Source: Escherichia coli (GTDB lineage Bacteria; Pseudomonadota; Gammaproteobacteria; Enterobacterales; Enterobacteriaceae). From it: a DNA stretch of 64,000 nucleotides. The notes beneath the pieces were generated by a model. It ran no database searches. It saw only the letters and a program-made list of their open reading frames with translations, and had not been told where the DNA came from. Below are positions 14,866-55,964 of this stretch, one piece after another (the stretch's first letter is position 1; every line of letters starts with the position of its first letter). Location: assembly GCF_041886205.1 (NCBI RefSeq), contig NZ_CP169029.1, one strand, 5' to 3'. Made by a program: the position numbers and the translations under genes.

Positions 14866-14941
14866 TGGCTCCTCTGACTGGACTCGAACCAGTGACATAC
14901 GGATTAACAGTCCGCCGTTCTACCGACTGAACTACAGAGGA
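14866..14941 (-). tRNA. asnV: tRNA-Asn (GUU)
   Basis: Reverse complement equals TCCTCTGTAGTTCAGTCGGTAGAACGGCGGACTGTTAATCCGTATGTCACTGGTTCGAGTCCAGTCAGAGGAGCCA. Confidence 0.95.
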
Positions 14942-17274: not shown

Positions 17275-17350
17275 TGGCTCCTCTGACTGGACTCGAACCA
17301 GTGACATACGGATTAACAGTCCGCCGTTCTACCGACTGAACTACAGAGGA
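17275..17350 (-). tRNA. asnU: tRNA-Asn (GUU)
   Basis: Sequence identical to the other three tRNA-Asn copies. Confidence 0.95.
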
Positions 17351-19098: not shown

Positions 19099-19174
19099 TC
19101 CTCTGTAGTTCAGTCGGTAGAACGGCGGACTGTTAATCCGTATGTCACTGGTTCGAGTCCAGTCAGAGGAGCCA
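19099..19174 (+). tRNA. asnW: tRNA-Asn (GUU)
   Basis: 76-nt tRNA-Asn sequence ending ...GAGGAGCCA. Confidence 0.95.
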
Positions 19175-35283: not shown

Positions 35284-35359
35284 TGGCTCCTCTGACTGGA
35301 CTCGAACCAGTGACATACGGATTAACAGTCCGCCGTTCTACCGACTGAACTACAGAGGA
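35284..35359 (-). tRNA. asnT: tRNA-Asn (GUU)
   Basis: Identical 76-nt tRNA-Asn sequence. Confidence 0.95.
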
Positions 35360-36350: not shown

Positions 36351-36440
36351 GGAGAGATGCCGGAGCGGCTGAACGGACCGGTCTCGAAAACCGGAGTAGG
36401 GGCAACTCTACCGGGGGTTCAAATCCCCCTCTCTCCGCCA
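36351..36440 (+). tRNA. serU: tRNA-Ser (CGA)
   Basis: GGAGAGATGCCGGAGCGGCTGAACGGACCGGTCTCGAAAACCGG...CTCTCCGCCA; long variable arm, anticodon loop CUCGAAA. Confidence 0.93.
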
Positions 36441-46192: not shown

Positions 46193-46285
46193 AAAAAAAA
46201 GCCGGCATCATGCCGGCCCAAAAAATATAAACAAGACGATAAAAGGCTAATAACGGAAGCATCATGACACAGAATAATAAAAAGG
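46193..46285 (-). ncRNA. rseX: Candidate small RNA (RseX-like), defined by a minus-strand intrinsic terminator
   Basis: GCCGGCATGATGCCGGC hairpin followed by T8 on the minus strand at about 46193-46217; no ORF upstream on that strand; 5' end not determined. Confidence 0.35.
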
Positions 46286-54439: not shown

Positions 54440-54618
54440 TTACCAGGATGATTCTCAAAACAGCACAAATAATCAAAGATGATTTTTTCGGGAGCGATCC
54501 CGTTGACGCCAGAGCCACCAAGGGGTGACGCACGTCACATTTCTATTCATAAGTAGCGTTAATCATTCATATCGCGAATATTTTCTTGTCAGCGAAAAAA
54601 ATTGCGGATAAGGTGATG

Positions 54619-54705
54619 AACACATCAGATTTCCTGGTGTAACGAATTTTTTAAGTGCTTCTTGCTTAAGCAAGTTTCATCCCGACCCCCTCAGGGTCGG
54701 GATTT
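54619..54705 (+). ncRNA. dsrA: DsrA small regulatory RNA
   Basis: AACACATCAGATTTCCTGGTGTAACGAATTTTTTAAGTGCTTCTTGCTTAAGCAAGTTTCATCCCGACCCCCTCAGGGTCGGGATTT matches my recollection of DsrA, including the terminator stem-loop. Confidence 0.9.
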
Positions 54706-54718
54706 TTTTATTGTGCAT

Positions 54719-54946
54719 TCAACGATTCACTTCAGAGACGCTGAAGTCATGAATATCCAGTTCGAAGGCATCCGCCAATTCACGCCATGTATGATATTCA
54801 CGTCCATCGACGCTAACGTGTTCAGAATCGTTCTGGCTGCGATGAACTTCGCTTTCGCTAATTTCATTGATCGCCGCCAGCAGGGCATCGACATCGACGC
54901 TGACCTCACGTTTTGCGGTATCGCTGTACTCTTTTGCGGTTTTCAT
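54719..54946 (-). CDS. yodD: Stress-induced small protein YodD
   Basis: 75 aa from MKTAKEYSDTAKREVSVDVDALLAAINEISESEVHRS... Confidence 0.8.
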   Translation of the reverse strand: MKTAKEYSDTAKREVSVDVDALLAAINEISESEVHRSQNDSEHVSVDGREYHTWRELADAFELDIHDFSVSEVNR

Positions 54947-55018
54947 CATCTTTCCTCGCAACCGTTACTCTGTTGTTGCCGCCAGTCGTTAAGTCCGCCT
55001 GGCATCTCTTAAGTATAG

Positions 55019-55297
<279 letters not shown>

Positions 55298-55340
55298 TCT
55301 TATTCAGCCTGACTGGTGGGAAACCACCAGTCAGAATGTG

Positions 55341-55964
55341 TTAGCGCATGTTGACAAAAATACCATTAGTCACATTATCCGTCAGTCGGACGACATGGTA
55401 GATAACCTGTTTATTATGCGTTTTGATCTTACGTTTAATATTACCTTTATGCGATGAAACGGTCTTGGCTTTGATATTCATTTGGTCAGAGATTTGAATG
55501 GTTCCCTGACCTGCCATCCACATTCGCAACATACTCGATTCGGTTCGGCTCAATGATAACGTCGGCATATTTAAAAACGAGGTTATCGTTGTCTCTTTTT
55601 TCAGAATATCGCCAAGGATATCGTCGAGAGATTCCGGTTTAATCGATTTAGAACTGATCAATAAATTTTTTCTGACCAATAGATATTCATCAAAATGAAC
55701 ATTGGCAATTGCCATAAAAACGATAAATAACGTATTGGGATGTTGATTAATGATGTGCTTGATGTGCTGACTGTTAGAAGCATCATGGATGAAACAGTCC
55801 TCATTAATAAACACCACTGAAGGGCGCTGTGAATCACAAGCTATGGCAAGGTCATCAACGGTTTCAATGTCGTTGATTTCTCTTTTTTTAACCCCTCTAC
55901 TCAACAGATACCCGGTTAAACCTAGTCGGGTGTAACTACATAAATCCATAATAATCGTTGACAT
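55341..55964 (-). CDS. rcsA: Capsule synthesis regulator RcsA (LuxR/FixJ-type)
   Basis: 207 aa with C-terminal LuxR-type HTH. Confidence 0.9.

Follow-up and report, generated by a model that had tools for sequence, protein, structure and literature searches.

A canonical dsrA gene in a non-K-12 Escherichia coli strain and the terminator hairpin that it appears to share with yodD

Is the sequence between yedP and yodD in this Escherichia coli genome a complete dsrA gene, and how do its transcript and that of the convergent yodD gene come to an end so close to each other? The window analysed here is the whole stretch of 64,000 nt, in which the original prediction had placed an apparently intact DsrA small RNA at 54619–54705. 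A scan of the whole window against Rfam 15 (cmscan, gathering threshold) returned RF00014 on the plus strand at exactly these positions, with an E-value of 1.5e-18. Alignment to this model had been proposed as the check, and the score of 102.5 bits was well above the gathering score of 60. The match spans model positions 1–85 of 85 without truncation, and the 91 nt from 54619 to 54709 show 100% identity to dsrA (b1954) of K-12 MG1655 (2025223–2025313, minus strand), both of which bear out the view that the gene is intact. We are highly confident that the locus is the canonical dsrA of a non-K-12 E. coli, including the promoter, structure, target pairing and yodD overlap as explained below. It is an already known gene, ordinary, in its usual conserved context. 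Coordinates of its features are collected in Table 1.

Table 1. Features of the dsrA–yodD locus in window coordinates.
Feature	Position	Strand	Basis
dsrA promoter −35 hexamer TTGTCA (putative)	54586–54591	+	Position, conservation
dsrA promoter −10 hexamer TAAGGT (putative), 17-bp A-rich spacer from −35	54609–54614	+	Conserved TAnnnT
dsrA gene (DsrA sRNA)	54619–54709	+	Rfam match end 54705; K-12 annotated end 54709; K-12 Term-seq 3′ peak 54703
Stem-loop 1 (SL1), DsrA nt 4–22, AUUUC pentaloop, G19–U7 wobble	54622–54640	+	MFE and consensus fold
rpoS-pairing region, DsrA nt 10–32	54628–54650	+	RNAduplex against K-12 rpoS leader
hns-pairing core, DsrA nt 31–43, UUUUAAGUGCUUC	54649–54661	+	Complementarity to K-12 hns
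Stem-loop 2 (SL2) upper stem, CUUGC-UUAA-GCAAG, nt 43–56	54661–54674	+	Consensus fold
Stretch in both transcripts, putative shared terminator hairpin, 29 nt	54675–54703		K-12 Term-seq
yodD mRNA 3′ UTR, 44 nt, through complement of SL3	54675–54718	−	K-12 Term-seq
Stem-loop 3 (SL3) and U7 tract, intrinsic terminator and 3′ Hfq-binding module	54679–54709	+	Terminator scan
yodD CDS, 75 aa, peroxide/acid resistance protein, RpoS-dependent	54719–54946	−	ORF list and annotation

The gene order, dgcQ(+), yedP(−), dsrA(+), yodD(−), dsrB(+), rcsA(−) and fliR(−), is the mirror image of that in K-12. dsrA therefore lies in its usual conserved place, flanked by yedP and yodD and close to dsrB and rcsA, and the literature gives yodD and yedP as the flanks of dsrA in both E. 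coli and Salmonella. Its 91-nt sequence, core promoter, flanking genes, orientation and spacing to yodD are all identical to those of K-12, and the window differs by strain-level SNPs outside the gene only. From yedP to rcsA, identity to MG1655 was 98.69%, with 31 substitutions and 0 indels, and no substitution fell within 54574–55161, a stretch that comprises the core promoter and gene of dsrA, the spacer, and yodD with the intergenic region up to dsrB. Judged by its sequence, the window strain is a non-K-12 Escherichia coli. Some of the SNPs cluster in the yedP–dsrA intergenic region (54503, 54531–54532 and 54573), and others lie in the 5′ region of yedP (54422, 54433, 54438, 54462 and 54471). 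E. coli records of RefSeq/PGAP, for example NZ_CP010237.1, have no feature annotated under the dsrA match, unlike the curated MG1655 record, which does annotate the gene.

A simple sigma-70 consensus scan missed the dsrA promoter, as TAAGGT agrees with the consensus at only 3 of 6 positions. The promoter was placed by phylogenetic footprint instead. Alignment of 50 Enterobacteriaceae upstream regions showed conservation of a CTTGTCA block, an A-rich 17-bp spacer and TAnnnT just 5′ of the RNA start, with TAAGGT, TAATGT, TAGTGT and TATGGT as −10 variants across genera. Work by Repoila and Gottesman from 2001/2003 reportedly showed that the −35, the spacer and the −10 of dsrA control temperature sensing. 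Spacer sequence composition also influences regulation of the dsrA promoter (review PMC2613000). In the window strain the core promoter is identical to that of K-12; the nearest SNP, C-for-G at 54573, corresponds to −46 and lies just 5′ of the −35.

The minimum free energy fold of the window DsrA has three stem-loops and −31.9 kcal/mol, compared with a mean of −16.2 for shuffled sequences (z −5.68, 0 of 200 shuffles as good). These are SL1 at nt 4–22 with its AUUUC loop, SL2 and the SL3 terminator, and SL1 is exactly the same in its extent, wobble and loop as that of the NMR study PMC5766208. According to the same study, the lower stem of SL2 is conformationally plastic. A terminator scan found SL3 as a 10-bp hairpin with 7 G–C pairs (54679–54703), followed by T7 (54703–54709), which is the form of a Rho-independent terminator with a poly-U tail. 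Terminator U-tails of sRNAs contribute to Hfq binding (PMC6582626), and the terminator and U-tail of DsrA are required for correct 3′ ends and Hfq binding (literature including PMC6582626 and PMC5766208). Moreover, the efficiency of the DsrA terminator reportedly varies with temperature, being higher at low temperature (PMC6582626). Transcripts that read through this terminator at higher temperature would extend into yodD in the antisense direction.

Relatives were collected by scanning a single genome of each GTDB species for DsrA nt 4–25, which gave 53 loci. They came from Escherichia, Salmonella, Citrobacter, Enterobacter, Leclercia, Lelliottia and Buttiauxella, and further from Pseudocitrobacter, Superficieibacter, Franconibacter, Siccibacter, Huaxiibacter, Pseudenterobacter and other Enterobacteriaceae. 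The 50 distinct DsrA sequences had a mean column identity of 87% in alignment, and their consensus fold recovered SL1, the upper stem of SL2 and SL3. The upper stem is the sole part of SL2 retained in the consensus structure and is nearly invariant. Five pairs of the SL3 stem are preserved by compensatory double changes across genera. Invariance of SL1 among the relatives is an artefact of the search pattern and is uninformative for covariation of this stem. The orthologues in Salmonella, Citrobacter, Enterobacter, Leclercia, Lelliottia, Buttiauxella and others have the same SL1 and rpoS-pairing stretch as the search pattern demanded, and they share with the window the upper stem of SL2, the SL3 terminator with its U-tract and a convergent yodD directly downstream. 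They differ in the sequence of the SL3 stem, where changes are compensatory, and in the linker, which may have one U fewer or C for U.

Pairing with known targets was computed against K-12 sequences; the strain's own rpoS leader lies outside the window. Using DsrA nt 1–36, the complementarity of the anti-antisense activation site was found against the K-12 rpoS leader, in which nt 10–32 pair with positions −119 to −97 (−26.4 kcal/mol; 1 of 1000 shuffles as good). The experiments of PMC5766208 used the same rpoS-pairing region of DsrA. An unrestricted RNAduplex run of full-length DsrA against the rpoS leader over-extended and was uninformative, with 27 of 500 shuffles as good. For hns, the linker and SL2 are complementary to the start of the K-12 coding region, where DsrA nt 31–43 form a perfect 13-nt complement of +7 to +19 (GAAGCACUUAAAA). 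This match, like the rpoS pairing, is consistent with PMC5766208. The duplex of DsrA Domain2 with K-12 hns had −23.1 kcal/mol, and 4 of 1000 shuffles were as good.

The function of dsrA in the window strain can be predicted because the gene is 100% identical to the characterised gene of K-12. A weak sigma-70 promoter (TTGTCA, 17 bp, TAAGGT) would produce a DsrA RNA of about 85–91 nt with three stem-loops, and this RNA would be made mainly at low temperature. The rpoS 5′ leader contains an inhibitory hairpin, and with the aid of Hfq, nt 10–32 of SL1 and the linker would pair with its upstream arm. Such pairing is expected to free the ribosome-binding site of rpoS and then lead to more RpoS synthesis, especially at low temperature. 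DsrA may also counter premature Rho termination in the rpoS leader. Nt 31–43 would repress hns by pairing where its coding region begins, and SL3 and the U-tract would serve as both intrinsic terminator and 3′ Hfq-binding module. Thus Hfq binding and dependence, temperature control and effects on RpoS and H-NS, all established for K-12, are probable in this strain, on the strength of K-12 identity and the literature.

At the other side of the terminator, the ORF was identified as yodD through annotation in E. coli genomes that are identical over this stretch. It is read on the minus strand from an ATG at 54946 to a stop codon at 54719–54721. The mechanical ORF call (54719–54961, minus strand) starts yodD at an upstream TTG and gives 80 aa; the start in K-12 and PGAP records is the ATG at 54946, giving 75 aa. 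The original prediction put the end of DsrA 14 nt from the yodD stop codon, and this value is correct as the offset from 54705 to 54719, which leaves 13 nt between them. The offset depends on the 3′ end that is chosen, being 14 for the Rfam end (54705), 10 for the K-12 annotation (54709) and 16 for Term-seq (54703). From the last T of the U-tract, which is also the K-12 annotated end, 9 nt lie between dsrA and the yodD stop codon.

Relatives were compared by this last measure, the number of bases that separate the last T of the U-tract from the yodD stop codon. In the 51 usable loci, which include the window and represent at least 14 genera of Enterobacteriaceae, tblastn placed a homologue of yodD directly past the terminator, on the opposite strand. 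The spacing was 3–15 nt in 47 of them, the median being 8 nt, and most orthologous loci have 3–10 nt compared with 9 in the window. Exceptions were Siccibacter (30 nt) and three Buttiauxella loci (22, 124 and 141 nt). Since nearly all loci have such short spacers, tight abutment is ancestral and conserved rather than peculiar to the window. In Buttiauxella izardii and B. gaviniae, inserts of 124 and 141 nt, respectively, separate the dsrA terminator from the yodD stop codon. These inserts presumably resemble an enterobacterial intergenic repeat of the ERIC/IRU type.

How the two transcripts end can be seen from the curated Term-seq 3′ ends of K-12 MG1655 (Adams et al. 2021, eLife, Supplementary file 1; PMC7815308). 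All three conditions gave the same DsrA 3′ end, 2025229(−), with about 604,000, 887,000 and 778,000 reads (PMC7815308). A ‘primary’ 3′ end of yodD is at 2025257(+), with 11,227 reads in LB at OD 2.0 and 2,463 in M63, and is absent from the LB OD 0.4 listing (PMC7815308). Converted by window position = 54619 + (2025313 − K-12 coordinate), the ends fall at 54703 for DsrA and at 54675, inside dsrA, for yodD. Therefore the transcripts share 29 nt. The original prediction of tightly converging transcripts was right as to the close tail-to-tail spacing, but the arrangement is more than abutting, as the K-12 Term-seq ends overlap by 29 nt. With the ends mapped in K-12 and the sequence identical here, we infer that the dsrA and yodD transcripts of the window strain have a stretch of about 29 nt, and with it the terminator hairpin, in common.

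The SL3 hairpin folds on both strands and is the sole hairpin-encoding element between dsrA(+) and yodD(−). The 3′ UTR of yodD ends with ...GGGAUGAAA, 4 nt beyond the hairpin stem, and yodD mRNA may thus use the complement of the DsrA terminator hairpin as its own 3′ end. We also considered a canonical bidirectional intrinsic terminator with U-runs on both strands. On the yodD strand of the window the hairpin is followed by UGAAAC and not by a U-tract, and UGAAAC, UCAAAC or UCAAGC takes this place in all genera; a classical intrinsic terminator working in both directions is therefore rejected. Studies of convergent E. coli genes have described overlapping bidirectional terminators, at which a hairpin and head-on collisions of polymerases set the ends (Ju et al. 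2019; bioRxiv 10.1101/2022.10.23.513370). By analogy, the anatomy of dsrA/yodD fits this class. Like the pairs described (Ju et al. 2019; Wang et al.), it consists of convergent units with a single hairpin element and, in K-12 Term-seq, with 3′ ends overlapping across the hairpin. In contrast to collision-set terminators, the element in the dsrA direction is of the textbook intrinsic kind, with a U7 tract. The pair was not found by name in the papers on overlapping bidirectional terminators that were examined, and a literature search found no paper discussing the dsrA–yodD overlap.

The missing U-tract leaves room for a different origin of the yodD end. Transcription of yodD could read through antisense across dsrA into the dsrA promoter, followed by trimming of the RNA back to the hairpin by 3′-to-5′ exonucleases, so that the end inside dsrA would not mark termination and the hairpin would only stabilise the mRNA instead of being a shared terminator. 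We regard this as possible, although somewhat unlikely. It agrees with the UGAAAC after the hairpin in the window and with the lack of a U-tract on this strand in every genus examined, and the mapped end, 4 nt beyond the stem, is where trimmed ends typically lie. However, the curated K-12 Term-seq and Rho tables contain no other 3′ end and no Rho-termination region within 2025100–2025699, and hairpin-only overlapping bidirectional terminators reportedly end transcription by RNA polymerase collisions without U-tracts. A terminator hairpin shared by the two genes is the preferred reading.

The tail-to-tail overlap might be regulatory, with yodD transcription or the yodD 3′ UTR feeding back on the production or activity of DsrA and closing a loop on RpoS. 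Such feedback would set in when RpoS rises and yodD is transcribed towards dsrA; it could act by head-on collision of RNA polymerases at the shared hairpin, or through the 3′ UTR of yodD, whose 29 nt are perfectly complementary to the terminator and Hfq module. Several facts speak for the idea. The yodD promoter was ‘the most purely RpoS dependent’ of those tested (bioRxiv 10.1101/2023.11.09.566509), DsrA activates rpoS, the transcripts overlap by 29 nt with short spacing conserved across genera, and the efficiency of the DsrA terminator is reportedly temperature-dependent. On the other hand, reads of the yodD 3′ end are about 80- to 300-fold fewer than those of DsrA, each of the complementary segments is tied up in a stable hairpin, and no paper describing such an effect was found in the literature search. 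Short convergent spacers with shared hairpins are also common in E. coli, and the neighbouring dsrB/rcsA pair has the same layout, which suggests generic genome economy rather than regulation. A regulatory role of the overlap is highly doubtful, as is the reading of the conserved overlap as a feedback device tuning the RpoS-activating DsrA.

dsrB(+) and rcsA(−) are the next convergent pair in the window. They have one shared hairpin, CTGACTGGTGG-GAAA-CCACCAGTCAG, at 55309–55334, with no U-tract on either strand. The K-12 Term-seq 3′ end of dsrB, 2024594(−), corresponds to 55338 in the window, and the rcsA stop codon (55341–55343) follows 3 nt further on.

With the 91-nt sequence as query, dsrA was detected in 5338 of 5426 complete E. 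coli genomes, in 4971 of these at ≥99% identity, and the other 88 had no match. In E. coli B-1109 (NZ_CP117971.1, 1792–2570) an IS1A element lies inside dsrA, a natural disruption in which only DsrA nt 22–91 align, downstream of the transposase gene. That the match in the window is a decayed, non-functional remnant or a chance hit has a negligible probability: no support for it was found, the disrupted gene of B-1109 looks different, and a chance hit or pseudogene is ruled out by the Rfam score (E 1.5e-18) and the 100% identity to the functional K-12 gene, with an intact core promoter. As for plasmid-borne copies, two matches labelled ‘plasmid’ among the E. coli genomes and 15 PLSDB hits were rejected, as they belong to records of 0.39–4.9 Mb. 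The ‘plasmid’ records with dsrA–yodD (H33–H40; non-mobilizable) are most likely mislabelled chromosomes or chromosome fragments.

Elsewhere in the window, a second small RNA gene, that of the Hfq-binding sRNA rseX, gave a full-length match to RF01401 at 46194–46283 (minus strand), with 97.7 bits against a gathering score of 50, and lies 8336 nt from dsrA. We take the rseX–dsrA spacing to be the same in K-12. The window also contains four identical tRNA-Asn(GTT) genes and one tRNA-Ser(CGA) gene, at 14866–14941(−), 17275–17350(−), 19099–19174(+), 35284–35359(−) and 36351–36440(+), which presumably correspond to asnV/U/W/T and serU of K-12. The asnW–asnT interval is about 16.1 kb in the window, and we assume that it is a few kb shorter in K-12. 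For window positions 1–24000, the best E. coli matches reached only 99.4% and came in 2–3 pieces, with ISL3/IS2 transposases in the subject genomes. Strains differ in structure over this left part of the window, which holds yeeO, amn, shiA, sbcB and neighbours.

dsrA is unlabelled in nearly all RefSeq/PGAP genomes of E. coli, and an Rfam pass is needed to reveal the gene. Our results add mildly to what is known of it, in that dsrA and yodD appear to use one terminator hairpin between them, their 3′ ends overlapping in K-12 and their geometry being conserved across Enterobacteriaceae. Moreover, the combination of an RpoS-dependent yodD with the RpoS activator DsrA may offer a convenient natural test case for whether terminators of convergent transcription carry regulatory information.
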